The notes: a model not told the origin generated them from the letters alone. A stretch of 64,000 bases of DNA from Marsupella aquatica (GCA_973895155.1 OZ316896.1:10613525-10677524); one strand, 5' to 3'. Numbered from the stretch's first letter, positions 5,470 through 30,052 are shown. A program made the numbers and translations.

Positions 5470-5823
5470 GGTGGATTGCATGATTGAGGACTACCATTTT
5501 AGTCCTTTTTTCTCCATAAGAAAGGACTCCATGAGCACTTAATAGGAGTCCATGAGCATTGAATTTGCCATATATCCCTTGATGGCTAGGATTGAGTAGT
5601 TGAGATTGAAAGGTTAGATCTTGCATGCCAAGTCTTTTGGAAGTGTGTCCACACTTCTTGAAAGTCCTTACCTCTTGGAAGTGTGCCCAACATTTGTGGA
5701 AGTGTGTCATGAAATATTTTTTATCTAAGATGTGCCAATCTTGGCCGTTGACAGTCCTTGATTTAGTGAAAGGATTGGAGACTTTTTTGCCTCCTTTGGT
5801 AGTCCTCAATCATGCAATCCACC
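5470..5823. mobile_element. MITE-like element with perfect 27-bp terminal inverted repeats
   Basis: GGTGGATTGCATGATTGAGGACTACCA (5470-5496) and its exact reverse complement (5797-5823), with TATT on both flanks (5466-5469, 5824-5827). Confidence 0.6.
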
Positions 5824-6940: not shown

Positions 6941-7365
6941 CCTATACGCTCCTCATTTCATAAAACATATTAATGCATAATTTATGTTAAAGGTTTGAAC
7001 TAAAGTGTGAAGTGTCTTAGATCTACAACAAGAGTTCCAAAACAGGCCTCTACACTCCTAATTTCATAAAACATATTAATGCATGATTTATGTTAAAGGT
7101 TTGATTTAAAGTGTGAAGTGTCTTAGATCTACATCAAGAGTTCCAAAACAGGCCTCTACACTCTTCATTTCATAAAACATATTAATGCATGATTTATGTT
7201 AAAGGTTTGAACTAAAGTGTGAAGTGTCTTAGATCTACAACAAGAGTTCCAAAACAGGCCTCTACACTCTTTATTTCATAAAACATATTAATGCATAATT
7301 TATGTTAAAGGTTTGAACTAAAGTGTAAATTCAGTGTATTAAATGTACAACAAGAGTTCCAAAAT
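6941..7365. repeat. Tandem repeat, 4 x 106 bp
   Basis: Near-identical units start at 6941, 7047, 7153 and 7259 (CCTCTACACTC...CATAAAACATATTAATGCAT...CAAGAGTTCCAAAACAGG). Confidence 0.95.
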
Positions 7366-9160
7366 AAGTGGGAAAATAGATTGTATTCTTCTATTTGGGA
7401 TTCTCAACTTAGACATCCACTTGTCCTAGGTTACAATGCAATATTGTACAACTATATATGTTTGCTATAACCATTGGTACAATTTCAGCATTTATAAAGT
7501 ATCAATAAAAACAAACTTAAACTACTGGTGACCAAGGGGCTTAGCCCAAAGATTGAGCAAGCTACATGGCTACACGAGAGTGTGTATGTCCATTACTTTC
7601 ACTTTCTAAATTAACCACTCCTTTTTGAAGGACTGGAGATGGAGTTTAGAAGCTATTGACCCCAATCCCCAAAGTTTTCCTTCATCTATGACTAGCTCAA
7701 GAGTTATCATTTCCTATTGTTAAGTTAATTTCTTGGCCTTTCAACTCATTCCACATGATCTATGCATCCAACATATTCCAATTCACTACTTCTCATCTTC
7801 CCCCTCTACCTAAAGCCAACCAGGAGATATGTCTTCATACACACTCCTCAATGGCTCATATGTTGCAAAATTAAAGTACTTAGTTCATGTGTGTGCTACC
7901 TTGGTATTTATTGTTATTATATGTTATAAAAAATAAATATCAACAAATGTGCTAAAACTTGGTGGTCATTCCCGTGGATGAAGAAAATATGATGAAATGA
8001 ATGGTTTAACAAGTTTTTAGTGGCTTAAAGATGGAACTCACATCTAGCTATAAAGACAATCAACAATCAACAAGTCATGCAACATGTTCCATGGAAAAAA
8101 AAGATGACTCTCAAAGCCCATCCAACAAGTTGCCATCAATTCTAGTAACAATAAGAAGGGTGATAAGCAATTGCTGATCTTTTCAGCCATGGTACATTAA
8201 CAGTCCACACAACTTAAAGAACTTTTCTAATCTGCCCACAAGTAGTGCCTCCTTGCCTAGTTAGCTTACAATAGTGCTTATAAATTGCACTTTCCAACCA
8301 TGCACTCTTTAGCTGCTGGAAATAGGGATTGAGAGTTAAATGAAAATAATACAGTCATGTGCATGTGTGTTTAATGTGATGCCATGACCTCTACCTTTGG
8401 CTTAATGTTGCCTAATGTTGCCAATGAAGACCTCTCAATTAGAGAGGCCCTTAATTTGCCACATCTTGTACGACCTATAGCAAAATGAAAACAATAACTG
8501 AATTGGTAATGAATGAAAAGACAAAAATGCCACAACATGATAAGGGTCAAAGTGGAAGCTCAACCTTGCTATGCTGCTTTAGGTCTATTGATGAAGCATG
8601 ATACATGCAGGTAACTACATTTCTTTTAAGTGTGCAGTTTTTTCCTAAAATGCTAGCGACAAGTTTCTTTTGGTTCCTTGGAAAATTTTAAGAAGGACAA
8701 GAAAAATATTTTGATGCGATTGAACCTTTTTTTTAATATTTAAACTATTTTATTCAGATTTGATTTAAATTATTTTCTAAAAATGATTTCCTTGAGATAT
8801 CAAGAAAGTTCAGAATGTAATCAATCAAATGTGCCCCGATGTTAGTTATATACTTTCAAAAAATGAAATTTGATAAAAACTTTGCCCACCCGTGCTTCCT
8901 CAACAAGTCAATTATATTTGTTCCCTTTCTAATCTGAAAAAAACACTGCAAGTATATTGTGCCAACCATATGCATCTTCAGTCCCTTACTCACCCAACAA
9001 CTCAAAACCAAAGGATAAAGAGTGAGTACCGTGGAAATTTCTATGCAAAAAGAAATTATTGTAGCCATTAGTGGTGAATGGAATTTGGTCCCTCTTCCAC
9101 CATAGGATTGTAGCGACCCAATATTGTTGATCTTCCGCCAAGAACAAATTGGGTTCTTAT

Positions 9161-9779
9161 TGTTAAGTATTGCTCTTAGTCTTGTGACTCATAGGTTATG
9201 GTAATTAGGCCAATCATAGTTAGAGACTTAGCCGAGGTTAGGTTAGTCATGTGTGACCTTGCATATATCAGGGCTAGTGTAAGCTGCTGGTACACGGTTG
9301 CTCATTGTAACGAAACAACTCGAGGAAGAGAAAGAGCTTGTGTGTTCGACTACTCTGAAGTAAAGTTGGAGTGCTCGTGTGGACGTAGCCTTAGAGAAGA
9401 GGTAAACCATGTATATGGATTGTGTCAACTACGTGAGCATGGTATGAGTCATGATTGTATCGTCGTAAAGAAAAGCTGTACTATATACCAACTCTTACTT
9501 CCATATTGGACTTCCCAGTTACTTTCTCTCTAAGGGCTAGTCACTATATAAGGACGCATCACCTTCACATAAAAGGAAAGTGTAATCAAACAATAGCAGA
9601 ACCACTCTCATTTATAATTAAAAATAAGTCAATATATTGCATCTACTTCTTTTGCCTTTGTACCATTTGGACAAATTTTGTTTGTTCTTCATTATACTTT
9701 GTTTGGCCATTTTCTATGTAATATATTGTTGTAGTTGGACTTACTCTCACCACTTAAGAACCAATATGTGGGTCCAACA
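9161..9779. mobile_element. Possible solo LTR
   Basis: TGTTAAG...CCAACA termini, an internal TATATAAGG (~9545) and LTR-like composition. No matching TSD found. Confidence 0.35.
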
Positions 9780-10645
9780 GGTCCGCAGGATTGGTTTAAT
9801 TTGGTTTCATATGAACTTAATTTTAACTCTCAAAATTCTTGCAACATACTCAGGGTTTATGACATTGATACCCACTAATGTCGGGTGATTGGGTTTGGGT
9901 TTGATGGTTATGTTTTTTACTTAACATAAGGTAACCATAAAACACAATTTTGGATCGACCGAGTCACACTTCTCGTTTAGCTCGATTCCATTTTTTTCCA
10001 AGGCAATACAATCTCCAATAAAACGACCACAAAATCAGAAAAACATTAGTTGCCTACATTGTATCGCCGCAGGAATGCAGGGAGCGATATATGCATCGGG
10101 TTTAACATTTGGAACGTAAAAAAGTCTGAATTGCAAGTAACTTGGTCCCAACCATGTAATCGAGGGTCGATCCTGCAACTTCTGATAAAATAGCAATTAT
10201 AACACAAATAGGTGATTCATATGTAAGTTGAATAAGTTACTCTCTATACGACATTATGAAATAGAGTGCAAGAAGTTGTACACTATAATTTCACCAGCCT
10301 GGCCAGGCTATATCATATAAGCGCATTAAATAATTATAATGACATCAAAATGAAGTGCGCATTTGTGTGCTGGATCCACACAAAGTCTTCATTCTATAAA
10401 TTTATTGGAGTCTTCATTCTAATCCAAAGTTTGGTTTGTGATAGAGTCGGGTCATTCTAGATGAATGCAAAGTGCGATAAACTTATCGCACCCAACTGAC
10501 CAATATTATTCTTGAGTATTGTTTTGCGACTCATCTTACTCCATGATGTCGTAGTCTTTCTAAATGAAAATAATAGAGAACTTAGATATATTTCCTTGAA
10601 TATCCAGTTTGATTCTTAGATGTGAATCTTGGCAAAATTATGTAC

Positions 10646-10905
10646 TTTTGAAATTTGAGGGATAAATCTATCGATGTTGATATTTTAAAATATATTTTTT
10701 CATATGGATGTTTGTAGTTTTGGAATTTAAGAGATAAATTTATCTGATGTTGGTATTGCAAAATGAATTTTCTCCATATGGATGTTTGCACTTTTGGAAT
10801 TCAAGCAATAAATTTATCTAATGTTGGTATTGCAAAATAATATTTTTTCATATTAATAATTGCAGTTTTGGAATTTAAGCAATAAATTTATGGATGTTGG
10901 TATTG
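10646..10905. repeat. Degenerate tandem repeat, about 4 x 74 bp
   Basis: Recurring TTTTGGAATTTAAG.ATAAATTTAT...ATGTTGGTATTGCAAAAT units. Confidence 0.8.
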
Positions 10906-11536
10906 TCGACAAGTATTTTTGTCATCCAAAGTTTTTACAATAGTTTTATCGGATTGCACATTGCGGTTGCGATAACGGCATGTTGACTATACATGTGTGT
11001 GGTTACTATAGTCTATTGTGGAGGTAACTATGAGGTAAATTTGACAAACCATGCGGTAACTTCATGTCGATTGTCATATAAAAAAGTTATGGTAAATAAC
11101 AAAAAATAGAAAGAATTGGAATTTGGTAAGAATTTTCATGATTGAAATCCGGAGTCCGATCCGAGTATCGGAATTTGTTCAAAAAATGGATATGAATTTC
11201 TAGATCAGACCATTCATATATTTTTAGAGAGCATGAATTTTGATTTGACGAACCCTTTTAGGGTCTAATTTTTCCATGATAAATTTAATGTTTGTGACCA
11301 TGAATTTAAGTGGTTTTGACCATTTTCAAATTTCTTGATTCAATCCAAACTCCGATAAAAATTACATTATTTTCTCAAAAATTGGTTTTTTCATGAGGAA
11401 AAATATCAATTTTGCAAGATTTGAAGGAAAATGAAAACACACTTCTTGTTTGCAAAAATAGTTATTACTCGATCTAAAATCTTGTTATAAGGAACCTTGT
11501 AAAATAAGCCTTTCATGGTTATGTTCCATATGATTA

Positions 11537-11680
11537 TCTTATAAAATAATTCAAAACAAAAACACAAATAAAAAATCTCAATAAGATAAATTAAGTAACT
11601 TGAGTAAGCTCCAAAACAAGATAACTATACCCATTGAGATTTATTATATATGTTTTTGTTTTGAATTATTTTAGACAAGA
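11537..11680. repeat. Small AT-rich fold-back (imperfect ~41-bp inverted repeat)
   Basis: TAAAATAATTCAAAACAAAAACAC...AAATCTCAAT pairs with ATTGAGATTT...TGTTTTTGTTTTGAATTATTTTA across a ~50-bp spacer. Confidence 0.65.
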
Positions 11681-12229
11681 CGTATTCTTTGTATTTTTAG
11701 ACTTTCGTATTATCTCCCCTTCCCCGCCTCTTAATATTCTCATAACTTTTTTAGAGCCCCCCTTCAACTGTATATTTATTTTTCAATCTTGCCAATCATT
11801 TGTTAACTGTATGTGTTGTTTTATCTTTATATTCAAGTTCTAATTAATTATCATGGATTATACATACCCTAAGATCTATATTCTCAAGAGACCCATTTGT
11901 GACAAAAAGGACTAATTCTTGGTCCACTACAGGAAGCTTTGCACAAGTAAAAAATATATAAGTGTATTATGTGGTTAAAAACACGTTTGTCATGTAGCCC
12001 CCTAATATCTCACCTATTCCTTTTGTCAATGCACTCATAAGTGCATGTCCATTCTCTAGGGCCAATAGTTTCAAACCAATGTATCAGGAGTTCATTTCAA
12101 CCCAGCCTGAGGGGGGAGATTCAGAGCCGTCAAGGAAATCAACTGCCAACACTTTGTCACACACTAAAGTTGTTGGACCTGGCAAACACACCCTCAAAAT
12201 TGGTCGAACACTCATTTGAATCCTTGCAA

Positions 12230-13300
12230 AAGAGAAGTCAAAATAGACTCGGCAAGCAATAGTACTCCTTGGAGCGTATAATTTTTCATTTCTCAACCAA
12301 AGCTCTGTTGTGCTCTAACTTCACTAGGATGTTGTCTAGTACTGGTATGTATTGACAAAGTTTGGTCTCATTCTGTCTAGGGAATGGGCTCTAGAAATTT
12401 CACAATCTTTGGTTTTATCTCTCAAACAATGCTTATCTTAGTGAGCATTTTACTCCTAAGTAGTTGAAAGTAGGGATATTCGGCAGTTAAGACTCCTATC
12501 ATACCATCATTGTATTAGGGACCTAGCTAAGATAACAATGTGTACCTGGATTTATTTGCAGATCTAGCAAGTCAGAGTTGGTTTTGATAGTGACAAGGGA
12601 GAGAAGTCGAAGGTGGCTTAGGAGACAAGAGTACCCCCTGTAGCGTTTGATTTTTAATTTCTCAACCAAAGCTTCGTTCGTGCTCTAACTTCATCAGAAC
12701 GTTGTCTACTGTCTTGAATATGTACACACAAAGTTTGGTCTCATTCCAAGTTGGGAATGTGGCTCTAGAAATTTCACAATCACTAGTTCTATCTCTTAAA
12801 CGCTGGTTACTTTAGTGAGTAGTTGATAACAAGGACATTCGGTAGCTACGACTCCTATCATACCACCATCTTGTTAAGGACCTAGCTAAGAAACCAATGT
12901 GTACTTGAACTTGTTTGCACATCTAGAAAATCAAAGTTGGTTCCAATAGTGGCAAGGGAGAGAAGTCGAAGGTGGCTTAAAAGGTAGGAGTATCCCCCAA
13001 AACGTCTGATTTTTCATTTATCAACCAAAGCTCCACTTGTGCTGTAACTTCACCACAACATTGTTTACTACTTGGGGTATGTACACGCAAAGTTTGGTCT
13101 TATTCTATTCAAGGAATGTGGTTTTAGAAATTTCAGAATCTCTGGTTCTATGTCTCAAAAGCTACTTACTTTAGTGAACATATTATTTGTGAATAGTTGA
13201 AAGTAGGGACATTAGGCAACTACAACTTCTATCATACCACCATCTTGTTAGGAACCTGGCTAAGAGGACAACATGGACTTGAACTTGTTGCGCAGATTGA
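12230..13300. repeat. Tandem repeat, about 3 x 360-370 bp
   Basis: TCAACCAAAGCT...CTAACTTCA...AAAGTTTGGTCT...TAGAAATTTCA recurs near 12292, 12661 and 13021. Confidence 0.9.
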
Positions 13301-13433
13301 AGTATGCAACTAATTTGTACATAAAACTTGAATAATAGTATTAGTTTGTGTATTATGAATGATTTGTTGGAAGTTATGATTTCAATATTTTTTGTGATTT
13401 ATAACAATTAGTTTTGATTATGGATGTGCAGGC

Positions 13434-14340
13434 ATGGCTCGTCCTAAACAATCATGTAGAAAAGATAAGGGCGAGGGGAGACATATAACTGTGTTTGGAC
13501 CACATGTTTTGAAGTTTTCACGTGAAATCTACCAAAAACCAGTCAATTGTTGTGCCATTTGTGATGATAGTGGAGAGTTGATCATTTGTGATGGACCATG
13601 TTTGAGACACTTTCATCTCAATCCACAATCTCTACATGTAACAAAAAATAATTGTCCAAGGGTGGGCCTTCCACCACCTTCTGGCCAACATGAGAATTGT
13701 GTTGAGTTAGGCCAATTGTAGTTAGGCTAACTCAGGTTAGGATTTAACTAAGGTTAGCAATGATATATGCATGTTGTATATTACCAGGGCTAATGCCAGC
13801 TCGTGATGGATCTTTAGTTCATTTTTGGAGTGGAGCAAGAGAGACGTAAAGGTCTCTTGCTTTTCCATGGATGTAGCCTCAGTAGTGAGATGAACCACGT
13901 ACTCGTTGTGTCAACTACAAGTTTTGTATGGTATTTACATGTGCATGATGTCTCGAGATAACGATTATCCTCAACAAAGTGGAAATGCAAAGATTGCATA
14001 CAAAAATATGCAAAGTGTGCCCAATGTGGAAACTTGGGAAATTTGGAAGGTCATCTTGACTCTCCAATATGTTTGAAAATATTGAGATAGATTTTGTGTA
14101 AGGTTTTTTTGCGTCGCATGTCTACCATCACATACCTCTATCTGCTCGTTACATACATACAAGGCATGTGGTGAACATGATGACCTCAATTGGATAGTGT
14201 GTAAGGTTTTTTTGCGTTGCATGTCTGCCACCACATACTTCTATTTGCCCGTTATATACATGCAAGGCATGTGGTGAACATGATGACCTCAATTAGACAG
14301 ATATTATCCATTGCATTCGATGCCCCACAATGTGGTATTT
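13434..14340 (+). pseudogene. NSD/EDM2-type tandem PHD zinc-finger remnant
   Basis: CCAICDDSGELIICDGPCLRHFH (ORF 13434-13721), WKCKDCIQKYAKCAQCGNLG (from 13980) and ICPLYTCKACGEH...IIHCIRCPTMW (14243-14335) follow the Cys/His pattern of the EDM2/NSD PHD cluster. Interrupted by stops, an intervening segment and a ~104-bp internal duplication. Confidence 0.7.
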
Positions 14341-17300
14341 TTACTTTTCAAAGGAAAGTCAGGCATAAGAATTTGCTTGCAACCAAAAGATATATGATCA
14401 CAGTGCCCCTGGGGTTGACAAATGATTCTTCTATTGTCATCTCCATCCTATCGATCTCACTTTGCATACCAATGTTCGTGATCATATTTCTTGGCTTTAA
14501 AGTTCATCAAATAGCTTGTTTGACTAAAACACCATTGGCAATCAAGTTAGCAAAGGACAAAAGAATGAAAGTTTTAAATTTTTCTTAAGAATATTTTGGA
14601 GTTATTAAAGTAACTTAGATTCACCAGATTTTGTATTCGGGCCAATGAGACCTTAAGCTTGATATAGTTTTGGAGAGTACAGAGATATAAATTTTGAAGA
14701 CAGCCTTGAAAAATATAGAGTCAACACATCAGTAGCTAACTTTCAATAGAGTACACATTTTTTGCTTTAAAGAGGAAGAACCTAAGGAGAGCAAAAATCA
14801 ATACTCAAATAAAATTATGAATAGTTAAAAGCTTTGGTAGAAGAACATTATGTATTTTTTCAGAGGTTAATCATACGTATGTTATGGGGCTTGCAATTGG
14901 GGAGCTTAGGTTTCTTAAACTAGGTTGAAAGCTTTACATTTTTATTCTAATCTAATAAGAATTGAAATTAATAAAGTATTAACAAAATAAATAGACATTT
15001 AAAATGCATGTCGGGTTAGTTACTGTGACTCAATCATTGGAAGATCAAGAACATGCAAATCAGAAAGTATGAAAATCAAAAGTGATATCTGGTGGGCTAA
15101 TTTATGGTGAAGGGTATTTACAAACAATAGGAAATAAAATTTGATAACAAGAAAATGATTGGTAAGTTTTTTAATTTAGAAAAAAAATTAAAAATTGATT
15201 TTTTTGGTGGGGGGGAAGATGTTGTGTTTTTACCCAAAAATATTTGTTTACTAACGCCCAAAGTTAGCCGAAAAATATTATGATTCAATTTTTGGTGGAA
15301 AAATATGATGTTTTAAGAAATATTTTTATATTGTTATTTTTTTTAGTAACAGTAAATTTTTGCTGGTAACAAGAAATATTTTGCTGGTACCAATAAACTT
15401 ATTTTCTGTTTACTGCCAAGCGTGCCATACCCTATGGTGATAAGGTGACCACTTCTCTTTTTGTCTCATCTTTTGTTACATGTATGCAATTTGCATACTT
15501 TAATTTTGTATTTGTTGATGAATTTATGAATACATTAATATAAACAATGTCCAAACTATGTCAAGAAATAGACATAACTAAAGATTAGGCTGTAGAAAAT
15601 AATTACGGACCTCATGAGAGATCTCTTCCAAAATTCTGACACCACAATGTGTCACGTCAACAACAACCATAACAAACAAGACTCATCAGTTTTGTGAATC
15701 AAACTTATAGTTTTCATTCTTGTTTGTGTCAATTTGGGTGTAAATTTTGGGACGTCATGTCGTAAAAAAAAGTAAAAATGCAAAAATGCAAAAAGCAAGA
15801 CGGTTAAAATTGTCACTATGTAACCATTTTAGTTACTTAATATCCAATTTTAAAACTTAAATTCAAAGATTTAAAAAGTATTTTTCATATAATAAATAAT
15901 GACTAATAATTAACTTGATAACTTCCTTGTTAAAGGGTAATTGGCACTTGGAGTAAAATTTCCAACCCTTTGCAATTAAAGTAAAATGCTAGTCATGATC
16001 CGAACTTGAGGTCAACAAATTGATATAATTTATTTGATTAGACATTCATCTAATTGCAAATGGACTTGCCACAGATTGAATTTTGATTCTTGTAGCTTGA
16101 GAAATTGGTTAGTAGCATGTAGCAAAAAGGCCTTATTTTGTAATTACAATGATGAGATATAATTGATGCAAAAGTAAATAAAAGGAGAAAGAAAAGACAA
16201 AATTCTCTCAACTCCAATATAGTATACAATCTATTATAAGATATTCATTATCATCATTATATTACTATATTTTGGAGACCATAGTTTTATGAGTAAAATC
16301 AAGCAAAATTGATATTTTAGTGGGGGTGAAACTTTCAAATTGTTTTTTTGGAGATCTTAGTGTTTGCCATTGATATGATTTGAATTCAATTTGAAATCAC
16401 TATGGTTCAAGATGTCAAGCAAAATATTGATTAATTAATAAACTATAATAAATTAGTAGAAATTCATTATCATTTTATGTTGATCAATAATCTTATTTGT
16501 GTAAGCTTAATTTAACGATCATCAAAATACAACAATCATCATCAAAAGCCAACCTCTTCCTAAGACTGAAGTTTAATTTTGTGAGCTCATCACTCTTACA
16601 TCTAAATTGAAAAAATTACGTATTCAATTTTTAATGAAATGATTGCTCGATGATTGGTTACTCTTTGAATATGGTGTTCACATCTTTTCCGATGTGAAAA
16701 TGAAGGAAGAGTTATCAAAATTTTATTTTGGTTTTCACTTGAACTTGGAAAAACTGGTGGTTGATTTGAGTCTTTTATTACCAATCAATGGAAAATGATA
16801 ATCCACTTGATCACTTTTCGGTAAATTTATCATTGTTTGGGAATGAGATTGCCATAGGGTATGGAAGATTTGTAAACATCTAATTTTATATATAAATCGA
16901 AAGGCAGATCATTTTGAAAAATTTGAAGAACAAAAAATCTCAATAAAGACATTTGCAAAGAGAAGCTTTCTTGATTGAGAGAGGATTTAGCCCACCCAAA
17001 ATAGAACGACATATTGTGTGGAAGGTGATACAAACTAACTTTTATGTCATGGATCCCTTGTCATCTATTGAAATCTGAAATGATAGTTCTACCAATAAAA
17101 TAATAAAGGAACGAATGAAAAGAGTTGTTCTAGAGGGCAATCAACCATTTCTAAGGCATTCAATAATTGATACCTACAATCATAAATGGACTGTTTGTAG
17201 AGTTGATTTGATATCAGCATTGATTGAACAATGCAAGTTGTGGGCCACTTGTGAATTGGAGACAAAGAAAATGAGCACATTAATTTTGTGAGTTAATACA

Positions 17301-17481
17301 GAGATAAGTTAAAAATTGTTGATACAACTTCGATTAGCGCATTGCAATTGAAGTTAATTCATGAGCAATGCTCCCATCAAATCTTATTTGAAATTGTTTT
17401 TCTACTATTTTGTGATTATTTTGGTCGGTAGTGAGAGGATTTTTGGATTGCAAGAATCTTTTCATGGATCTAAGTAAATAA

Positions 17482-17826
17482 TTACTTCAATACATTTCCA
17501 TACTCGATATTGTAAAACATGTTGTATCAACATATTCTTTATTTCTTACAAAGAACTATTATAAGATAGTTCATAATGATCATGATTGTAGTAAATACAT
17601 TATGTTTATGGCATCAAATCTCTCAATGGAAAAACGAGGTGGACATCTAGTTGTTATTGAGTATGGAATAAAGATTCCAATATTAGATGGGGATATTTTC
17701 ATTTTTTGTAAACAAGATATGCATGCCACCTCGTACAGATGTTTCTCTATAGAACCCGTGTATGTAGTTGGGATTGCAATTAATGAGAAGATAGGTGGTG
17801 CCTACACATTTTCAAATGAAAATTAA
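17482..17826 (+). pseudogene. TET/JBP-like 2OG-Fe(II) dioxygenase (DSBH core) remnant
   Basis: Stop-free frame +1 reads STYSLFLTKNYYKIVHNDHDCSKYIMFM...RGGHLVVIEYGIKIPILDGDIFIFCKQDMHAT. It has HxD at 17572-17580, GGxL..GD..F and a distal His, as in TET/JBP enzymes. The 2OG-binding Arg is not evident and the upstream part of the frame is full of stops. Confidence 0.6.
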
Positions 17827-17831
17827 TAAAC

Positions 17832-19447
17832 TATTAGACTCTATCCAACTTTACCCGTTGACCGGACCAGTCGGACACCCGACACAACTATATGTACACA
17901 CCATTCAAGACTCTATACACAGTTATTGACATTCACATCATCACACATTATCAGCACGAGAGCTCAACCACCGGAGCAAAGGAGAAAGAAAAGAAAACTA
18001 TGAAAGATTAAACAATTTTAAGTGGCGAATGGTGAAAAATCTAATTGAACAGGACTAAGGCGAATGAAGGCGAATGAAGAGTCAAAGCAAAAATGCAAAT
18101 GAGATCACAGAAGGAAGAATGAGCACACAGAAGTAAAAGAAGGAGGCTAAGAAACTTTCAAAGGGCTATGAAGATTGCAAGAAACAGGGAGTGAGGAATC
18201 AAACATGAACCCTTTAATAGAAGAGAGGAAAAATACCTTAAAAAGTGCAATCGAATCTGAATCCATTGAATCTCAATAGTGCAGAAGAATAATTTTGAGG
18301 AAAAGAATAAGGATGAAAGGCGAAGAGGTGTTGATTGATTGGATAAGAGCAGCAGATTGCAAATCATAAAGGATCAAAGGATAAGGCTAACCAAAGGCGC
18401 TACACAAAATCAAAGCTTAAGGAATGCCCTTAGAAACACCCACTTCCCTGCACTGAGTAAGACGATACAAAAGGATCAAAGGCATCAAGAAACAATTATA
18501 GAGAATTCAGGAATAAAACAGAACTGAAAAAATAGAAGGAGCCCTCTGATAAACGAAGGCGAAGAGCGAAAGCAAAGGCTACCAGCATAAGTGTAAAAAC
18601 GGAAGAGAAGAGATAGAAAAAAAGAGGAGATCTCCATAAGAGAACCTGAAGAGCCAAAGCAAGGCCGAACGAGAACACACGGGGCACAACCGCCACTAGA
18701 CAAATCTCACAACATTCAATCAAAAAACGTCAAGGGAACGTCGAAAAACCGCCGCTAAATGCATAACCCTCTTTAATTACAAAATCCGTCAAAGAGATTT
18801 CAGATACAAAGGAAAAGTTGCACTTAACCATAAACACACATTTAAGTGCAAAATCCCTAAGCGCATAATCCGTCAAAGAGATCTCACTTACAAAGGAAAT
18901 GTTACACCAAATAAGCGCACATAACCGCAAAACCTTCATAACTGCACACCGTAACAAAGAAAACTTAACTTTACAAAGCCGCATGTGCACTTAACCAGGG
19001 CACGAGTAAAGAATCACCCATAACTGTACACATTGCAAAACTTCATTACTGCACAATTTAACAAAGGAAAGAGACAATACAAAGGACATTTTCCAGTTAA
19101 CCAAATAACAAGGAAAACCTAAATCCTAAGTGCAAATTCTAAAATTGAATTCCAGATTTGCATGTCCTCTTCACCAAGACACACCCTACATGCCACATAA
19201 ATGTGTTTTGTCAACTTTTACTATATGTACTAGTACATACGCCCCAATTACCATTAAAAGGAACTTAGAAAGCTAGTGACATAGCAACCCTAGATGGCCA
19301 ACCTTGAGAAATTAACTTTTCCAGCCCTAGAAATCGATGGTAGCAATTACCTAGAATGGTCCATGAACCTCAAGGAGAACCCGACACAACTATATGTACA
19401 CACCATTCAAGACTCTATACACAGTTATTTAAATTCACATCATCACA
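17832..19447 (+). mobile_element. Internally deleted Ty1/copia (Bianca-like) LTR retrotransposon
   Basis: The 5' LTR (17832-17945) is followed by the PBS-like TTATCAGCACGAG. The gag N-terminus MANLEKLTFPALEIDGSNYLEWSMN (19294) is fused directly to a truncated 3' LTR (19379-19447, near-identical to 17877-17945). TSD TAAAC at 17827-17831 and 19448-19452. Confidence 0.85.
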
Positions 19448-19519
19448 TAAACATGATTCATATTTTGTTATATATTGATTTTGCTTGTCCATATGTATTT
19501 TTGCTTATTTTTGTAATAG

Positions 19520-21310
19520 ATGGATGCTCTCATAGTTTTAAAATCCCTTTATAAATCCACGGCATATTTTGTTAAAAATATTCTTATTTTAATATTGTAT
19601 ATGCAATGGCAACTTACTATACATTTTCTGACAAGTCTTGTTTTTTGTCTTGTGACTTTTGTTTTTCTGATAGAGATCTATAATTGTTCTAAAAAAGGTG
19701 GAATTATACACTGGAAAAATAAATTATTAGTTCATTGGAGTTTTGGAGAATATTTGGAAAATATATGGATACAGCAAACATCAATTCAATGTGTGAAGAT
19801 GTGATGGTAGACTCACTTCACATCGGTTACACTATGAAGGAATGTGCATTAGCACTTGGAATATGTCAAATTACCTTATGACGATGGTTGAAAGTATTTG
19901 ATAATGGAGAAAAATGTACCCAATATATACGTTTGAGGAGGTTGGGCAATTGATTTTAGAGTTTTTTCTCATATATGGATATGCAAAAGATTGCAGAATA
20001 AGAATGATAAAGGTACGATTATGAAGTGTTGGATACAAAGTTCCAAAAAAGCTTGTACTTGCATCAAGAGCACGCGAATGTCTAATATATTGGGTTTACG
20101 ATGTCACCAAAGCAATGCATATTTGGCATATGAACTGTGAGTAAAATTCAAGTATTTATATACTCTTATTTACATTGAATCAATCAATTTTGACTATATA
20201 TGATTCAGATAGTTTGTTCATGATCATGAAATTATCTACTAATTTATTTTTTAATCTCTTGTGCAACATATGACAAATTAGCAAATTTATGGAATTAGAG
20301 TTCATGGAGCTATCAATGGAGCTACACATTATGTTATGTATATGCATGTTGCATTAAATAAGAAAGCCCTGACTATTTATGAAGGGTATAAAAATGTGAT
20401 TCAAATATTTGGTCATCCTTTATTAATTAGTTCTGATTATGCGATTGAACATATTTTGGTCCAAAATAACCTTGAAAGGGCAAGACCAAATGCTCATAGT
20501 TTTCGCAAAGGTTTTTCAGTTCATAATCAGGTAGTATTTACACTCAATTATATGTTATCAAAATTATTTGCTTGATATGCTTATTAACATACTATTGTTT
20601 TGCCTATGGGACTTATGGGGGCCCGACGTTGCATTGGCCGCGATGCTGATTTGTTGTCTGTGTTGTTAATGCTTTATGTCTGCCCTCCCAGGGGTCATGT
20701 CATTTAGCTGGCTTTTTGATGGTCTGGTTGTTTCCCATCTATCACGGGGTTTTTGTGGCTTTAACTTATAAAAGAAAAAAACAATTTCAAGGAACATATA
20801 TACTAATTTTTTTACAATCAATATGATTTTTATAGAGGATTGATCGAAGCATTTTGGGGATCGGATTCTTGAAGAAACAAGGATTGGATGCCTTGCATAG
20901 ATACTCCATTGTTGCTGTACTTCTTCCATTTATTCAAAATGTTGTAAATGATATCATTCTAACATGGAATGCCCATACAGTGAGAGCGATGCGAGAACGG
21001 GGTGTGAACAGACCATCACACATTCCTCAATTTTCTTTTCAAGGAAGAGAAAGAGAATCTAAAATAATTTTACCTCCACCATATCGTGAAGAAGGTCAAG
21101 TTGATATTCAAGATGTAGATGATATTATTGAGACTATTGACACTGATTATTGGAATCATAATGATGATCATGGAAACTTTGAACATGATGTTAAAGATTT
21201 AGACGATGAGGTAAGTAAAGCAAAATGTATTTTATTTGGTTGCATATTCTTTTCATTAATTTCAAATTCACCAAATACTTGTTTTTTTGGTGTAGTGTCT
21301 TTGTGATATC
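19520..21310 (+). mobile_element. IS3EU-type DDE transposase (integrase core), intron-containing, decayed
   Basis: HTH-like GYTMKECALALGICQITL, then HIWHMN | YDKL..YGIRVHGAINGATHYVMYMHV, FGHPLLISSDYAIEH, GFSVHNQ |intron 20531-20835| RIDR and LLPFIQNVVNDIILTWNAHTVR. This matches the WHiDGhhKL..HGgIDG..DxGgEN..SvHNQRIE..WN.H signature. Contains stops and frameshifts. Confidence 0.8.
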
Positions 21311-22799
21311 TATGATTTTGCATATGAAACTAATCAGATTAGAGTCTCATTGGAGGAGGACAAGTTAAGAATGCATTTGTTGCTTTCTCTTGAATGTGAA
21401 AGTAGTTCTCATGCCACTATGGGGTTGACAGTCTATCTGTGTACATCAATAACTAAATTTTAATAATTTGCCAGAAGAAAGGTCACGGCTTTGAATACCT
21501 TGGACCAGACACTCCAAACTATCAAAAATAGAACTGGCCACACATGAAGTAAGTTCTTATGGGGAACTTATAAATGTGACATATTATATTGTATATTAAT
21601 CTTAAAGTAGATGATTGCAAGTTGTATTATTTTTATTAGTTTGGGTTTAATGTATGTTGCATGTGTCTGTTAATTCTCTATGGATTAGACTCTTTTTTGT
21701 CTTGCCTTTGATTGAACTCTTATTGTTTGTTTAACAGTTACCTTACTTTCTATTTTGCAGGTAAATTTTGCGATGAGACATGCTAGTACTTGAGAGACTC
21801 ACGCATGTTTTCCAAGGTGGGCGTCATGAGCAAGGGACCCCTAGGTTACTATTTAAATTAGTTAATTAATCAGAATGTCTTTGAATTTTCCATGGCTAGA
21901 GAAGAAATGAAGACCTGTATAATTGAAATGAACTTGAATTTAGGCTATGTTTAGTCATTTGTAATTTTTGTAACCCGGTCAACTACTTTGTCTATTATAA
22001 TATATATCTCCCAAAGAGTTAAATTGCAGTTGATTCAATTCTGACTGACCAGGGTACATCTTAGTAGTAATTTGCCATAGATAGACACTTTCAGGGAAAA
22101 ACTTAATGTGCATGAATTGGGGCCACCTAAGGTATTTCTTTTGAAATATTAGTTACACGAGGTAATGCAATGGGCATGCATATAAATGCATTCCAATGTG
22201 GGTAACAAAGTGGGTTTCAAAGACAAGCACAAGTTAGTAGTTGAAACCAACTTTGTGGCAACAGAGCTCCCAATGAAACAGTTAGAATATGACCAAGTCC
22301 ATATTTAGTCTGTCACTCACAAACACACATGCTTACCACCAAGATGATCCTCGTCTGATAGATTTGCACTACTCAATTTCATTTTTCATTTATTCTTGTT
22401 AATCAGTAATGTGGACCTCTTGAGTTGTGGCTTCTACTAGCCATGATAGGTGTTAGTTGATGTGGTTGTGCCTACACATTGACGCTTCAGTTGGGTGAGC
22501 TGATCAAGGTGACAAACTGACACGCTTCTTTGTGGATGGACAACAATTCACTATGATAAATGAAACTATAATAAAAGTCTTATGTATCATGTAGTCTTCC
22601 TTACTTTGGCCTTCATATGATGTAAACAAGAAAAACTCAGTTGATACACTAGAATTGTGGGAGCTTATATATGTGCCAGGTAAAATCCAAGCCTCTTTTG
22701 GCTCCTTCCAGTCTCTCTTGGCCGTCTATGCTGAAAAAGGGTGGACGTCCCAGACGTCTTTACAAAGGGGGCGTCACCTTATTGCCGTCCTGGCCACCT

Positions 22800-23850
22800 T
22801 CAGTTGGTTTAAGAAAATTAAGATCATCCTTTGGTCATAGGCTGGACATCCCAACTCAAGGAACATAATTCATATTTGGGCCGGCCACAATGTCTTCATC
22901 GTCTTGACTTTACTCAAAGATCTTGCCATCCTCATTAAACACTATGTAATTAAGGTTTGAAAATTTCTCAATTTAATACTTTATACCCCTTCTAGGAATA
23001 ACCACTATATCACACACCTCCTGCCCCTAGCAGTAGTTGATAGTTCACAATGCCCCCAACTGCCAGAACATTATTTTAGACCATACACTCTGCCTTGTTG
23101 GTTTGTCTTAAATTTGCATACAATCCTCCTGTCCCTCAAATCCAATATTGCTTGGGCAAAAGCCGTTCTTTGGTCATAGGCTGGACCTCCTTACTCAAGG
23201 GACATCACTAATATTTGGGCCGGCCACAATGTCTTTGCCATCTTGACATTACTCAAAGATCTTGCCGTCCTCATAATGCACTATGTGAGCCTGTTTGAAA
23301 AGTTTGAAAAATTCTCAATTTAATACTTTATACACCTTAGTTCTAGGAATGACCACTATATCACACACCTCCCGCCCCTAGCAGTAGTTGATAGTTCACA
23401 ATGCCCCAACTGCCAAAACATTAATTTAGACCATACACTATGCCTCGTTTGTTTGTCTTAAACTTACATGAAATCCTCCCGTCCCTCAAATCCAATATTG
23501 CTTAAATAAGCAAAACCCGTTCTTTGGTCATAGGTTGGACCTCCTTACTCAAGGGACATCACTAATATTTGGGTTGGCCACAATATCTTTGCCATCTTGG
23601 TTTTATTCAAAAATCTTGCCGTCCTCATAAAGCACTATGTAAGGTTTGAAACATTTGAAAATTTCTCAATTTAATACTTATACCCCTTCTGGAATAACCA
23701 CTATATCACACACCTCCTACCCCTAGTAGGAGCTGATAGTTCACAATGCCCCCAACTGCCAAAATATTATTTTAGACCATACACTCTGCCTCATTTGTTT
23801 GTCTTAAATTTGCATGAAATCCTCTCTTCCCTCAAATCCAATATTTCCCT
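22800..23850. repeat. Tandem repeat, about 3 x 340-355 bp
   Basis: CTTTGGTCATAGG.TGGAC...ACTCAAGG...CCACTATATCACACACCTCC...CCCTCAAATCCAATATT recurs near 22829, 23168 and 23522. Confidence 0.92.
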
Positions 23851-25765
23851 GAATCTGCATTTTGGTAACGCTCGTTCTCAAATCATTGAGTATGCATGTC
23901 TTAACCCTCCTAATGCAAGTGTCACTAAATTTGTCTAAGTAGAGGCCTTTTTGTGAGCAATAGTTGTGGAGCGCCACCTCTGCATGCCTTAGTTAGCACC
24001 TTGGCATGGAGGTGGAGCAACTTGCTATCAGACGTTACAAGTTAGTTCTCTATAGTGATCGGGACTATTGCAATTTATTTTGGTATTTGACAATGTACTG
24101 ATGATCTTAGTTGCACAAGAGGAAATTATCAAGAAGAGCTTGTTGGGGATCACCTTCAACATACAGTAGTCGCAAGAGAATCAACCAAGCAACAAAGCTT
24201 TGAATTTGGCCTAGAAATTAAAAGTAGAGTAGAGAAGAGGAGGGCGGACAATGGGTTCGTTTGTGCATCACAAAGACCTAGTGTAAACATCAATGATCTA
24301 AGGTAATTTTTCAAATTAAACTATTCATCCATAAGTCCTAAGTTGTTGGACCCCAAGTTTTCCATATGGAGCACCTTTGCATGAAACACCTTATTCATTT
24401 TTTAGCTGGTACTACAGCCATGCTGTCCAATACATGCAGGAAAACAAGGGCTACATAGGACAGCATTTTAATTTACAGCATGAATGCTTTATTAAAAAGG
24501 AAAGAGCTGCCCCTCAAAAAAGGTGGATCAACCTAGAAATTTTTGAAAAGGCTGTGAACCAAACACTAAGAAGGTAAATCATAATAAAATGGCTGACATT
24601 TTGGTTACAAGGTATTTGTTGATCCATATGAGAGTTCTTAATAATATGCCCACATGTAATAAGCTAGGTGAAATGATGAGACAACCATAGTAGATTAAGC
24701 CTTTAATTTGTACAACTTTATTTACAATGTCTACCAAATGGTAGCGCACTCCAATGGAAGATGGAAACAAATTGATCTTCTGAAAATGGTTTGACTAGGT
24801 TGGTGGTCCCCCTCGATAACCTCTATTATTTCCTCTTGTATCTTTGTAGCAATCACATTTTTTATTTTTTCTTAGAAGACACATCCTCAGTGCAAGCTAT
24901 GAACTAGAGTTATAGCTTGCACTGAGGAAAGTAAATTAGGCTACGTTCCAACAACAGATCAAGTAGGAGATTTCATACTCAAGTTAGGCCTTGATTGCTT
25001 CTGAACTTTGTCATTTTATTCCATCATAGGTTCAACAAATAATAATTCATCATCAGTTATAGCAAAAGACCCTCTAAGTATGGGTTCTTGTGTCAATGAA
25101 AGTAGTGTTAAAGGGTAGTGATGTTGTTATGGCTCAAGAGCTATCATATTGCAAAAATGGCTCTGAGATCCTCCAAAGTGAGAAGTAATGCCCTCAAGTG
25201 CATAATGTAAGAAATTATGGCTAATCAATCTACATGCAACATGCTCATCAACAACAACCTTCACCATAGTTTCTTGGTTATTCTTGTGAGCCAATTAAGA
25301 ACTCATCCCATTCTGGATCCCACTAGTTACTTAAACCACAACTGCCCTTCAAAAGCTACGGGTTACCTGTAGTTACCATTAAAAGGAGATTTTTCCTGAA
25401 ATTGTGGAGCAAACTGACATGCTAGAGGAGAACAATGATTGAAATGTGAAAAAGGGGGAGGTCTTGGACACTTCCCCTTATATATAGGGGAAGTTGTGGT
25501 TTAAGAGCTCCAAGGAGATATGAGTTGAATCTTCTCATCATCGTTTCCTTATTGCAATGGTAGATTGTAGAGCGGGTTTGATCAGCATCCAAGGTCTGCA
25601 AATTCAGTTCTTCATGTTTTTCAGCTTCAAGTTTATCCCTCTTAAGTGGTACCATAGTAGGATTGGGGAAACTCTCACTACTAGGGAGTAAAGTTACATC
25701 ATCAGTTATCAATCATCTCCATCAGTTGACCAGATATCAGTTGCCATGTCATCTTAGAGAGGGCG

Positions 25766-26070
25766 CCAAGTTGCCGCGCTGGAAAAAAATGCGAATTTTT
25801 TTTTGTTTTTTAATTGTTTTTCACAATGTGTGTCCGTACCGTACGGATACCACATCTCAGGAGACCAGCCAAGATGGCCAGGTGTCTGTACAGTACGGAA
25901 ACAAAATTATGTCAAATTTTTTTCCCCATTTTTTTTTGTCCATATGTCGATCTCAACGAGGTTAGCTGAGATTGAGTCAATCTTAGTTGCCAGCTTAGAT
26001 GCACAGAAGTGCGAAGGCCCCATCTCAACTGCTCAGCTGAGATACAAAAATTTCAAGGCGGCAAAACTGA
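25766..26070. mobile_element. Degenerate MITE-like insertion
   Basis: Imperfect inverted ends (AGTTGCCGCGCTGGAAAAAAAT vs AAAAATTTCAAGGCGGCAAAACT). An internal motif (GAGG.TAGC..AGATTGAG..ATC..AGTT) is shared with 38120-38168. Confidence 0.35.
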
Positions 26071-27635
26071 TAACTGATGATCCTCGCTACCCCAGTACGA
26101 GGTGCAAATGAATGAAATCCACTACTACTTTCATCTGCCAATTAATATCACCTTATTCACATTGTTCATTGTCTTCTATATATGAACATTAGTAGCCCAA
26201 GTAGGAGTAGAAGATGTTTTCCAAGACTCTACCCTAGGGAATCATTTGCAAGTTAGATTATTAGAATGGGATGGTAAAAAAGAAGGTTAATCTTTTAAAT
26301 ATAGTTGGGTTACTAATTATAACCAAAGACATGACTGTACTAAAGATATTTAATAATCTAATTTTGACAAAATTATGAATTGGCAAGGTACTCACTTTTT
26401 TTCCAAATTTGTATAAAAAAGATGCAAAGGGTTTTTAATTTAATTGATACATTTTGTTTGTAGAATAATTGTTTGTCTCACTATTTGTGGGGGCTTTACA
26501 CTAAGCGACTCCCCAAATGGACTCTTACCTCTCAAATTGGCAACTATAGAGTCTAGTTCTTAGCAAAATCTTGAGAGACTTCACCACTGGTTCATTTTGG
26601 TGAAGTCTCTACATCCAATTTGTCTACTCTCATCTCACTAAGCAATTGTAACCTTTGTCACTTATTCTTCACTGGTAATATGCAATATCCATGCCAATAA
26701 GCCTAACACAAATAACTTGTCGAGCAAGTAGGCTTACTTGCCCCTGTATTCTTTCACCAGATAAAACACAACATGTTGCAGAAATAATGCATTGATTCCA
26801 TCATACCAACCAAAGAGGTACAATGTTTACAATCCTATACAATACAATGCCTAGTGAAAATCCATGTCATGTAACCATAGTTAAATGTAATCATTGGCTA
26901 TCTCCCCATTGGTCCCTGAATGTTAGGGTGGTTTTTTGGCACGTAACAATAAAGCACATTGTGTAAAAATTATCATCCCAAAATTTACAGGTTCACATGC
27001 ACATGTTTTTTGATGGGGCAGGTTTTTTTAAGTACAACACTAGTACTTGTTTTGTGTGCAAACATTGTTTTGTATGGCGGTGCAATTTTTTATTTGGTCC
27101 GCTGGTCAAAACTTTAATTTATTAGTGGTTTTGGGGCCACATACTCTTATTTTTGAGGTTTCTTTTGCATAAGTATTTTTTTGTGCAACTTTTTTGTTGG
27201 AAAGTAAAATATTCATACATCATTGTATATTGTTAATTTTTTTTATGTGACTCTTTTATACCTTTTTTGGATTAAAAGTCACCCTCTAATTCTCCTGCAT
27301 TTTTCCTTGCCATTTCACTTCTTTCATAAAAGCGATCCCCATTTCCAAAACATAATATGTGCCACATGTTTACAATTTTTTCAAGCCAAAATCTAAAAAA
27401 ACAACCTTTTATTACCCTGCATTGAACTCTATGAAATTGCTTTGTCCAACCTATTATTCATAATCCCTAAATATTCTCTCCTTTTTTAACAATGGAGAGT
27501 GATTTTTTTTTCTTTGGAACTCGTACGATTTCACAATTTAAATAAAACACAATACCCTTTATCTTACATATTTGTAACATATGAGTGTTTTACTTAGAAA
27601 AACACTCTGCAACATTTGGTATTCCGTACTTATAG

Positions 27636-27935
27636 TTGTGATGCTCAATTATATATTAGAGGAGGATCCTTTGCACACTACCTGAGCCTTTTGAGATACG
27701 TAATCTATGGCCAGGAGACACTGCGCACCTGTGATGCCCAATTACATTTTAGAGGAGGATCCTTGCACAGTACCTGAGCCTTTTGAGATGTTGTATTCTA
27801 TTGCCATGAAATCACTGTACCTGTGATGCTCAATTATATTTTAGAGGAGGATCCTTGCACCGTACCTGAGACGTTTGAGATACCGTATAATATTGCCAGG
27901 AAGACACTATAACTGGCATGCTCAATTATATTTTA
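27636..27935. repeat. Tandem repeat, about 3 x 92 bp
   Basis: TGTGATGCTCAATTA...TTAGAGGAGGATCCTTGCAC..TACCTGAG units near 27638, 27730 and 27822, with a further partial copy near 28143. Confidence 0.85.
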
Positions 27936-28179
27936 ACTTTTAATTAGTTTGCCATTAAATATGTTTAAATTGATAATCTTTTCATGGTTTTTACAAATTT
28001 GCACAGTTTCATATAAAGACAACAAGTTCATAAAAATAACAAAAATAAGAATACATGAAAATCATGGTAATTTTTTTAATATGATAAAAATAAATTTATA
28101 AATTAAATATTTTTAGTGACAAAGAAATTAAATTTATTATATTTTAGAGGATCCTTGAACAGTACCTGAGCCCTATCCA

Positions 28180-28475
28180 GATCATGGGGCAAACTGGTAC
28201 CATTAAATTAGCTTTTGCTCAATATCATGGAGCATTGGCATAAGAAAGTATACCATTAAAATTAGCTTTTATCGCAAAATCATGGAGCAAACTGGTACCA
28301 TTGAAGATAGCTTATCCATAGATGTAATGAAAATTAGCTATTGCTCAAGATCATGGAGCAAACTGGCGCAATTAAGGATGGTATCCCAATCATGGAGCAC
28401 ACTGGCAAATGATGGTATCCTTTATTGCGCCAGTTTACTCAATGATGGCGCAATCATGGAGAAAACTGGCAAATG
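28180..28475. repeat. Short degenerate tandem repeat (TCATGGAGCAAACTGG core)
   Basis: The core recurs about six times with 45-75 bp spacing. Confidence 0.75.
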
Positions 28476-28584
28476 AAAGGAAAGCCAAAATGAACTGTGG
28501 AAAGGGGGAGGGGGGGGTGATCTTGGAGACATTGACTTGTATATTCTATTGTCTACCACCCAAAAAGTCTGGTACCTCTCTTCA

Positions 28585-28975
28585 CAAGGTGTGCATTTTT
28601 ATTTCCTTTTACATTTTTAGAATCATTATTTCAATACATTTGAGTATGATTGGGATAATTTTTATTTTATAAACCAACGGAATTCACTCTCCTCACTTTA
28701 AAGGTGTGCATTTTTATTTATTTACTTTTTTAGAATCATTGTTTCAATACATTTGAATATGATGGGATAGCTATGGAATTTATTATCAACAAACCTTTGA
28801 GTATGATGGGATAGCTTTTATTCCATAAACCAACGCAATTCACCCTCCTAGCTTTTCATAAACCAATGGAATTCACTCATAAACTTTAGAGGTGCGTATT
28901 TTTATTTCTTTTTACTTTTTAGAATATATTTGAATATGATGGGATAGCTATGGAGTTTATTATCAATAAAACCTA
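28585..28975. repeat. Degenerate tandem repeat (AGGTGTGCATTTTTATTT core), also dispersed
   Basis: Three copies here and a related copy at about 58389-58450 in a CFAP58 intron. Confidence 0.7.
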
Positions 28976-28997
28976 GACATGGTCTTAGAAAGGGCTA

Positions 28998-30052
28998 CCG
29001 TCTTCCCCTGAACACAAGGCCCGGGCACTATATTCGAATAGTGAGCCAAGGGGCGCTCTATTTGAATATAGTGCCCAGGCGTTGTGTTCGAGTTTGAAGT
29101 CAATGTTTTCATTTTTTGGACTTGTGGCGTTGTGTTCAAAATGTGACGTTGTGTTCAAATTTAAGGTAATGTGCTTGAATTTTGGCTTTGTGAGATGCAT
29201 GTAGGGTGTAAGTAGGAATGATAGGCATAGAAGTTATGTGTATTAGATTAGAGAGGAGTGTGTTCAAGTTTAGGTTTTTTGACTTCCCAACAATATTTGC
29301 TCAGGTCAAAGGATATGTAGCTAAATAATTAAACCACTGAAATTACACAAGGGGAGAAATCAAATTTCAATAGAAAACAAAACCTGACAAACTATACATA
29401 CCAAGTCTACTATTATCACTTAGTAAAACATATTCGTCCACTTTTCACAGTTGTTTGGTTTATTGTGGCCAATTTGCTTGTTTCTATTATTTAATTTTTT
29501 TTCATGCAGCCTGGAATGTTGGTGAGACTGCTTTGTTTCTATTGGAGTGCCTTGATCTTGAGGGCAATGGAAAATTGGAAATAAAGAAAGTGAATCATCA
29601 GACCTAATTATGCACTTAGGCACTATGGGTTTCTTTGACAAGATGCCGTGGCGTCAGTCAGAGGTTGATATGAAAGTCCGTTGAAAGTTCACACAACAGA
29701 AGAATATATTGATACTTCCGGATTGCTGCTTAACATTTTGGAAAGAGCACACCCTTCTCCGAGAATGAAGGATTTTGAAATTAGCTTGCATTTCTCAAAG
29801 GACGATGGATTTAGTAAGTTGAAAGTGCGGATGTGTCGGACTAATGTAAGTAACGTATTGTAGTTGCAATCCAGTTACCTTTCTCCTATAGTCACTTGTG
29901 CATTTTCGAACACAAAGTCAATTTCGAACACAGCGCCTGGGCGCTGTGTTAATATGGCAGTGTGTTTGAGTAAAATCGTCTTTTTTGCCTAAAGTCCCCA
30001 TTTTGACCATATTCAAACAGAGGGCCCGGGCGCTGTGTTTGGGGGAAGACAG
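28998..30052. mobile_element. Non-autonomous Tc1/mariner (pogo-like) DNA transposon
   Basis: Left TIR CCGTCTTCCCCTGAACACAAGGCCCGGGC matches the reverse complement of the right end, CTGTCTTCCCCCAAACACAGCGCCCGGGC. TA on both flanks (28996-28997, 30053-30054) and subterminal GCGCTGTGTTCGAA-type repeats. No transposase ORF. Confidence 0.8.

Follow-up and report, generated by a model that had tools for sequence, protein, structure and literature searches.

We analysed a window of 64,000 nucleotides of Marsupella aquatica DNA (GCA_973895155.1 OZ316896.1:10613525-10677524; positions are counted from its first letter) and found on its plus strand the remnants of three co-oriented genes: a PHD-finger gene, a TET/JBP-like dioxygenase gene and an IS3EU/GingerRoot-type transposase gene. 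They lie within a repeated unit that ends on the right in an IS3EU-type motif, and in other copies of this unit the dioxygenase gene directly adjoins the transposase flank. We think it reasonably likely that the window holds a decayed copy of this unit, that the unit is one IS3EU/GingerRoot transposon of at least 14 kb, and that its dioxygenase, predicted to modify 5-methylcytosine (5mC), would have weakened host silencing. An earlier note on this DNA had described the three remnants as parts of one large element. The remnants proved to be real: the PHD domain PF23011 and the transposase core PF24764 both score above their cut-offs, and the dioxygenase is recognised as a divergent TET/JBP-like enzyme by its homologues and by the fold predicted for one of them. 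The single large element is supported by the joints between genes and by the terminal motif described below.

Evidence on other copies was obtained from contigs of four public runs (X1-X4), compared with window positions 9001-28000 and 26201-33700; all figures on contigs, joints and depths are among the matches listed. A second form of the unit, 89-93% identical to the window, tiles 9065-27628, a much larger interval than the 13434-21800 proposed earlier. In this form a joint 17831>19466, present in three of the four runs with at most 57 letters on its short side, connects the end of the dioxygenase gene directly with the transposase flank, leaving out the copia insertion of the window copy. 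Further inserts missing from the second form are 9938-11487, 25319-25500 and 25673-26092, and a joint 13694>13977, seen in all four runs, shows that other copies also lack the solo-LTR-like insert (LTR, long terminal repeat) of the PHD gene. The window allele itself occurs in X3 and X4, where contig pieces as long as 1.4 kb and 3.7 kb show 0 differences from it. The earlier note would have taken its reading as refuted (chance nesting) had other copies of the transposase never carried the PHD or dioxygenase fragments; this was not the outcome, since in other copies the dioxygenase end adjoins the transposase flank without the copia sequence and the repeated unit ends in an IS3EU-type motif.

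The depths of the PHD joint, the dioxygenase-transposase joint and the transposase contig were 140, 143 and 144 in X3 (4.9, 5.0 and 5.0 times the single-copy median of 29) and 58, 60 and 61 in X4 (4.3, 4.5 and 4.6 times the median of 13). All bins between the PHD and dioxygenase genes were multi-copy, with minima of 86.5 in X3 and 46.3 in X4, and depth was at the single-copy level over 28201-28450 and over the genes that lie from 30201 onward. The linkage of the PHD gene to the other two is based on tiling and matching depth. Overall, the repeated unit is probably one IS3EU/GingerRoot element of at least 14 kb.

Multi-copy contigs of X1, X3 and X4 stop at 27628-27629, where the minus strand reads TACGGAA (TTCCGTA on the plus strand). 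IS3EU elements have TAYGG..CCRTA termini (Kojima 2025, PMC12730594). All 15 fungal consensus heads available to us, of about 27 rows in Table S1 of that paper, begin with TAYGGA(A/G)G, five of them being TACGGAAG, and the right end of the window agrees in seven of eight letters with five of the 15. The TACGGAA heptamer occurs nine times in 30 kb, and the probability of finding it by chance within 2 bases of the break is about 1.5e-3. On the plus strand the right end is followed by CTTATA, a candidate target-site duplication (TSD) that is unpaired. A 92-bp array (27637-27935, three units) does not account for the break in the contigs, which falls 8 bp before it. We also rejected TACGG at 25894 as a left end, since it lies inside an insert skipped by other copies and has no TSD. 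Arrays of about 350 bp, which the earlier note had placed on both sides of the element, do exist but do not flank it: both sit inside the repeated unit, which disqualifies them as terminal repeats, and the 359-bp and 350-bp arrays show no relationship (best blastn E 1.3).

The copia insertion is bounded by TAAAC exactly where the earlier note had placed it. Its 5′ LTR (17832-17945) matches the 3′ LTR remnant (19379-19447) at 67 of 69 bases; we take its gag start and primer site to be of the Bianca type. When the insertion is removed, the dioxygenase stop lies about 72 bp from the ATG at 19520. The distance given previously was about 75 bp. It is doubtful that this ATG starts a first transposase exon: its open reading frame (ORF) carries no transposase signal, and 19523-19592 is not the same in other copies. 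The transposase becomes recognisable only at a weak HTH_28 match at ~19825-19908 (E 0.021; HTH, helix-turn-helix). It is followed by WHMN (20124-20135) with a GT donor at 20137, and by the core, PF24764 rva_4, at 20282-20530 (E 8.7e-11, 42.3 bits against a cut-off of 26), with SSDY at 20429. A GT-AG intron (20531-20835) joins SVHNQ to RIDR in frame, and WNAH lies at 20965. The roles of these motifs (SVHNQ-RIDR, WNAH and the others) and their being typical of IS3EU are our assumption. A word-index homologue search with the transposase core found none, which is weak evidence.

The dioxygenase gene is TET/JBP-like and not a canonical TET. The window peptide (17482-17823) gave no match on its own in Pfam or among PDB sequences. 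A full phmmer scan found 14 homologues at E≤0.001 (best 1.7e-36, 28-59% identical), and an alignment-based search added one more, P0015; a word-index search with the peptide yielded no homologue, again weak evidence. Homology is demonstrated over 17264-17823, the homologues carrying the match back across a frameshift, and extension to a start upstream of 17233 (perhaps ~16600) was not significant. Sub-cut-off matches within the family were obtained for PF20515 (4 of 16 members) and PF12851 Tet_JBP (2 of 16). In an atlas search by features, 22 of 30 matches of the window dioxygenase were in clusters with PF12851 (27-34% of members, among the matches listed); the same search with P0015, which is related and not separate evidence, gave 15 of 30 with Tet_JBP and four with PF20515. 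Scans of loci in metagenome contigs and viral contigs detected no relatives, and tblastn against phages gave no match. A lone match of 21 residues in the prokaryote scan (L001) was dismissed as chance, and a weak second dioxygenase-like match at 1555-1662 disappeared when the profile was used.

An AlphaFold model of P0015, built from 16 sequences (pLDDT 62.9, pTM 0.66), was compared with 48,161 chains (VIA). TET2 ranked first (Z 12.9, rmsd 3.8, 241 residues aligned), NgTET1 next (Z 11.3, rmsd 4.3, 216 aligned) and CMD1 third (Z 10.5, rmsd 4.0, 214 aligned), the last with the same Z as both PiuC and a prolyl hydroxylase of the PHD type. According to the model, the family would share with these three proteins (PDB 9hxv, 5cg8 and 7cy4) the double-stranded beta-helix fold, the HxD...H triad and an acidic residue soon after HxD; it differs from them in its sequence (8-10% identity), in having no Arg at the TET 2-oxoglutarate position and, in the window, in being broken. 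In a viral fold search a phage JBP1/TET protein ranked second amid many generic oxygenases, which is supportive only, and a single-sequence model of homologue P0012 was of low confidence (pLDDT 34). When the family profile was run against PDB sequences, CMD1 was the sole dioxygenase among two matches, at a weak E of 0.064.

The iron triad is represented in the window copy by HND (17572-17580) and His 17722. The proximal His is invariant in all 16 family sequences and the distal His in all 14 that reach that far; an Asp four to five residues after the proximal His is likewise present in 16 of 16. In CMD1 the Asp after HxD reads the N4 of cytosine and disfavours thymine (PMC7854593, as far as the accessible text goes). 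Judged by its position, the family Asp may be the counterpart of CMD1 D350 and NgTET1 D234. Because this putative N4-reading residue has a counterpart in all 16 sequences, 5mC appears a likelier substrate than thymine, which the earlier note had also entertained.

The frame of the PHD gene opens at an ATG and runs through a first finger, a second finger and half of a third. PF23011 PHD-1st_NSD matches it with E 3.1e-7 (30.9 bits, cut-off 27), PF23004 PHDvar_NSD matches weakly (E 0.0022) and covers the half finger, and the best PDB match of the peptide is NSD2 (E 2e-5). EDM2 is described as having 2.5 atypical PHD repeats and as binding H3K9me2 (available text of PMC7529245); the window gene is likened to it by this description only and differs in that 143 ORF pieces from 5.8-30.3 kb yielded no further domain of EDM2 or NSD. 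Other copies carry an in-frame 3-bp insertion in the PHD gene. A very high-copy repeat at ~9170-9600 is kin to the solo-LTR-like insert of this gene. The coordinates of all these features are given in Table 1.

Table 1. Features of the repeated unit in the Marsupella aquatica window
Feature	Position	Strand	Basis or remark
Minimum repeated unit	9065-27628	.	Left end at or left of 9065; ~14.2 kb minus the listed window-only insertions
Internal array, ~3 units of 359 bp	12231-13297	+	Tandem-repeat analysis
Decayed gene with ~2.5 NSD/EDM2-type PHD fingers	13434-14368	+	Pfam and PDB matches, Cys/His pattern in frames
Solo-LTR-like insert, 277 bp, TG..CA	13700-13976	.	Splits the PHD gene; 5-bp TSD AATTG/AAGTG, one mismatch
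Tandem duplication, 103 bp	14090-14295	+	Within the second PHD finger
Decayed TET/JBP-like dioxygenase gene, demonstrated part	17233-17826	+	HNDHD 17572-17586, distal His 17722, stop 17824-17826
Remnant of a copia-type LTR retrotransposon with an internal deletion	17832-19447	+	TSD TAAAC at 17827-17831 and 19448-19452
Decayed spliced IS3EU/GingerRoot-type transposase	19723-21210	+	HTH, rva_4 core, GT-AG intron
Internal array, ~3 units of 350 bp	22829-23845	+	Unit number varies in other copies, joint 23326>22981
Right terminus, TACGGAA	27622-27628	-	Contig ends and IS3EU motif TAYGG

A number of observations weigh against the reading of the unit as one mobile element with a functional dioxygenase. 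Comparison of copies, from which the earlier note had hoped to derive both termini, gave the right end only; a left terminus, a partner terminal inverted repeat (TIR) and a 6-bp TSD were not found in window 1-27000. Different flanks at 27628 were not seen among the 12 loose ends listed (there are 389 more), and no contig in the four runs spans the distance from the PHD gene to the dioxygenase. X1 and X2 are uneven, with PHD depths of 673 and 540 (4.6 and 5.8 times the median) against 237 and 317 for the transposase (1.6 and 3.4 times), and contig read depth is not the same as copy number. Two studies produced the four runs, among which the source sample of the assembly may be represented. The positions that we take to be the catalytic D-D-E of the transposase read N (20133-20135), D (SSDY) and D (RIDR), so this copy of the enzyme is probably dead. 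As for the dioxygenase, none of the 16 family members reaches a gathering score (best 20.6 bits against 34.9 for PF12851 and 19.1 against 27 for PF20515). The homologues were compared as sequences alone, apart from genomic context and host, and the modelled protein is one of them, P0015, and not the window protein. Foldseek, moreover, puts generic 2-oxoglutarate oxygenases ahead of CMD1 (rank 15) and has no TET among the matches listed. In the literature, TET genes are held to be passively transferred (Kojima 2025, PMC12730594, in the portion available), and GingerRoot often captures fragments of host genes, which were found in 22 of 77 elements (PMC6839031, likewise).

That last figure also favours a rather unlikely alternative which deserves attention, namely that the unit is one transposon whose PHD piece is a passively captured EDM2-like host fragment without a role (a Pack-GingerRoot), only the dioxygenase, or neither cargo, being functional. 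Such a capture would fit the presence of ~2.5 fingers with no other EDM2 domain in the 143 ORF pieces, and the accessible text of Kojima 2025 (PMC12730594) mentions neither PHD nor moss. Against it, the piece opens at an ATG and spans the entire 2.5-finger module described for EDM2, and other copies are free of the LTR and have an in-frame 3-bp insertion there. Capture in GingerRoot is also usually accompanied by loss of the transposase (6 of the 22 kept DDE; PMC6839031, available part), which is present here. It is still less probable that unrelated repeats were nested by chance and afterwards copied as a block by segmental or tandem duplication. The first 30 kb are indeed a CHG-depleted repeat pile with many nested insertions, and the lacking left end, TSD and spanning contig are in line with this. 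However, the boundary of the unit coincides exactly with an IS3EU terminal motif, in keeping with its own transposase, the neighbouring genes are single-copy, and TET and IS3EU are paired in fungi as well (PMC12730594, in part). The least probable of the explanations weighed is a smaller IS3EU element, from the dioxygenase to 27628, inserted in a different repeat carrying the PHD gene. It could account for the contigs bridging only the dioxygenase-transposase junction and for the depths in X1 and X2, where the PHD joint has roughly double the transposase value; but no left TIR or TSD match lies within 14400-19700, the bins between PHD and dioxygenase are all multi-copy, and the PHD and transposase depths agree in X3 and X4.

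A further alternative concerns the chemistry of the dioxygenase. In TET2 and NgTET1 the C5 carboxylate of 2-oxoglutarate is held by an Arg of the last strand that follows the distal His by 10-15 residues. None of the 14 family sequences has an Arg at +10 to +16, the canonical position as judged from sequence position alone, and 12 of the 14 have one at +5; the co-substrate may thus be 2-oxoglutarate or another compound. The enzyme might then be a CMD1-like writer that uses ascorbate to make a bulky cytosine adduct (like 5-glycerylmethylcytosine, 5gmC), possibly spliced to the PHD exons as a reader-writer protein; we consider this doubtful. CMD1, which has no basic residue holding the C5 carboxylate and is unable to use 2-oxoglutarate (PMC7854593, accessible part), is the best match of the sequence profile, and the PHD and dioxygenase genes are co-oriented. 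The match is nevertheless weak (E 0.064-0.4), the Arg five residues past the distal His could stand in for the canonical one, and the predicted fold of P0015 appears nearer to TET2 and NgTET1. In addition, the long homologues P0011 and P0012 have no PHD, and no splice path between PHD and dioxygenase was demonstrated.

The preferred reading, a transposon with a 5mC-modifying dioxygenase, implies several steps, which we hold with decreasing confidence. The transposase would have moved the whole unit by cut-and-paste, and mobility as one unit is quite probable. The dioxygenase, as an Fe(II) HxD...H enzyme, would probably act on 5mC rather than thymine, if the conserved residues are read correctly. 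The modified base could escape maintenance by CMT/MET1 or be repaired to cytosine, and silencing of the element might in this way be reduced, a step to which we give slightly less than even weight. Only tentatively do we suggest, by analogy with EDM2, that the PHD protein would bind H3 tails in heterochromatin and direct or assist the dioxygenase. An anti-silencing role of TET has been put forward, as a proposal, for the fungal elements (Kojima 2025, PMC12730594, available portion). Taken to its limit, and as speculation, this would mean that an IS3EU/GingerRoot lineage has recently amplified in seed-free land plants and carries a two-part anti-silencing kit, which locates heterochromatin and alters 5mC. 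The kit would consist of an EDM2-type histone reader and a TET-like family not described before, its co-substrate site rewired. If true, a land-plant transposon would for the first time be seen to encode an enzyme that produces oxidised or otherwise modified cytosine.

To our knowledge, land plants lack TET enzymes. We found no report of a TET-carrying plant transposon in the literature; the TET/JBP surveys of Iyer et al. (2013, 2014), which may mention members from early land plants, were outside the search. The earlier note had known of no description of the combination of IS3EU, TET/JBP and PHD. The PHD cargo is indeed new, but the IS3EU-TET pairing is not: TET-carrying IS3EU elements occur in rust fungi and Tuber indicum, always with an alpha-kinase (Kojima 2025, PMC12730594). 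As far as the accessible parts of that paper and its Table S1 go, the fungal elements resemble the window element in the IS3EU-type transposase, the TAYGG-type terminus and the TET/JBP gene beside the transposase, co-oriented with it in three fungal families as here. They are also large (8.3-12.9 kb in 15 of ~27 rows of Table S1, compared with at least 14 kb), and by eye their PU type has a similar H-x-D-x-D region, PF20515 being the family matched weakly by 4 of the 16 members of the window family. They differ in carrying an oppositely oriented alpha-kinase on the side where the window has a co-oriented PHD gene; no alpha-kinase was detected in 143 + 82 ORF pieces from 1-30.3 kb of this decayed copy, the left end of which is not located. 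The window element further differs in its land-plant host, in its distinct dioxygenase family, and in having no left end or TSD found.

IS3EU has been grouped with GingerRoot (PMC10045372), which is found in bryophytes and lycophytes (Cerbin et al. 2019, PMC6839031), both seen in part. GingerRoot of Selaginella lepidophylla and mosses shares with the window element an integrase-like DDE transposase, a seed-free plant host, a TA terminus and extra gene sequence. In contrast, as far as the accessible main text goes, its cargo consists of host gene fragments only and PHD is unmentioned, its TIRs are 100-150 bp (none such was found in the window) and its sizes are 3.9-12.9 kb (PMC6839031). VANDAL elements of Arabidopsis, which are Mutator-like elements, also encode a proposed silencing-countering factor, VANC, and are plant DNA transposons as well, but they belong to another superfamily, and VANC, a sequence-specific regulator, does not belong to the base-modifying dioxygenases (as cited in the available part of PMC12730594). 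What is new here is the land-plant host, the PHD cargo in place of an alpha-kinase, and a dioxygenase family without the canonical 2-oxoglutarate arginine. The finding adds land plants to the fungi as hosts of TET-carrying DNA transposons and suggests an anti-silencing route unlike VANC, with a chromatin reader and a base-modifying enzyme. While the window copy is probably dead, a TET-like gene on a plant transposon present in several copies offers a concrete, assayable candidate enzyme for modified cytosine in seed-free plants, and the absent arginine raises the chance of new chemistry.

The unit lies in a repeat pile that occupies window positions 1-30000, and genes begin at ~30.9 kb. CHG observed/expected ratios are 0.46-0.77 within 1-30000 and 0.82-1.29 beyond; near 30000, where the pile gives way to the gene-rich part, CHG depletion and G+C content both change abruptly. 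In all four runs, with every repeat of the stretch pooled, transitions to A/T in the window exceed the reverse 2.3-2.4-fold, a bias consistent with the decay of a methylated copy. Beyond 52 kb CpG falls again and CHG does not, a pattern expected from gene-body methylation.

In the gene-rich part, exons of CFAP58 (PF21771) were found at 54500-64000 on the minus strand (match at 61012-61428, E 2.3e-17); this is a flagellar gene and points to a plant with motile sperm, presumably of a seed-free lineage. A TAXi-type aspartyl protease is also encoded in the window. A Na+/H+ exchanger of 621 amino acids (PF00999, E 1.3e-63) occupies a single uninterrupted ORF at 47821-49689 on the minus strand. In flowering plants the endosomal NHX genes have many introns, and this ORF may be a retrocopy or reflect a lineage-specific intron loss. 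An ORF of 233 amino acids at 40048-40752 (minus strand) has a signal-peptide-like start and no Pfam match; we presume it to be ependymin-like.

Other repeats were noted on both sides of the unit. To the right, a high-copy element of 1.06 kb at 28995-30055 has 47-bp terminal inverted repeats and many different flanks (29 and 27 X3 contigs at its two ends), and is a separate non-autonomous DNA transposon. To the left, the minus strand holds a decayed retrotransposon-like stretch at ~1000-5400, with no Pfam support among 82 ORF pieces and with what we take to be a Gypsy RNase H-like motif, and low-complexity coding-like frames at 5830-6530. Between these two lies an insert at 5467-5826 that resembles a miniature inverted-repeat transposable element, with 30-bp TIRs that are 97% complementary, and a tandem array of four 106-bp units is located at 6925-7364.

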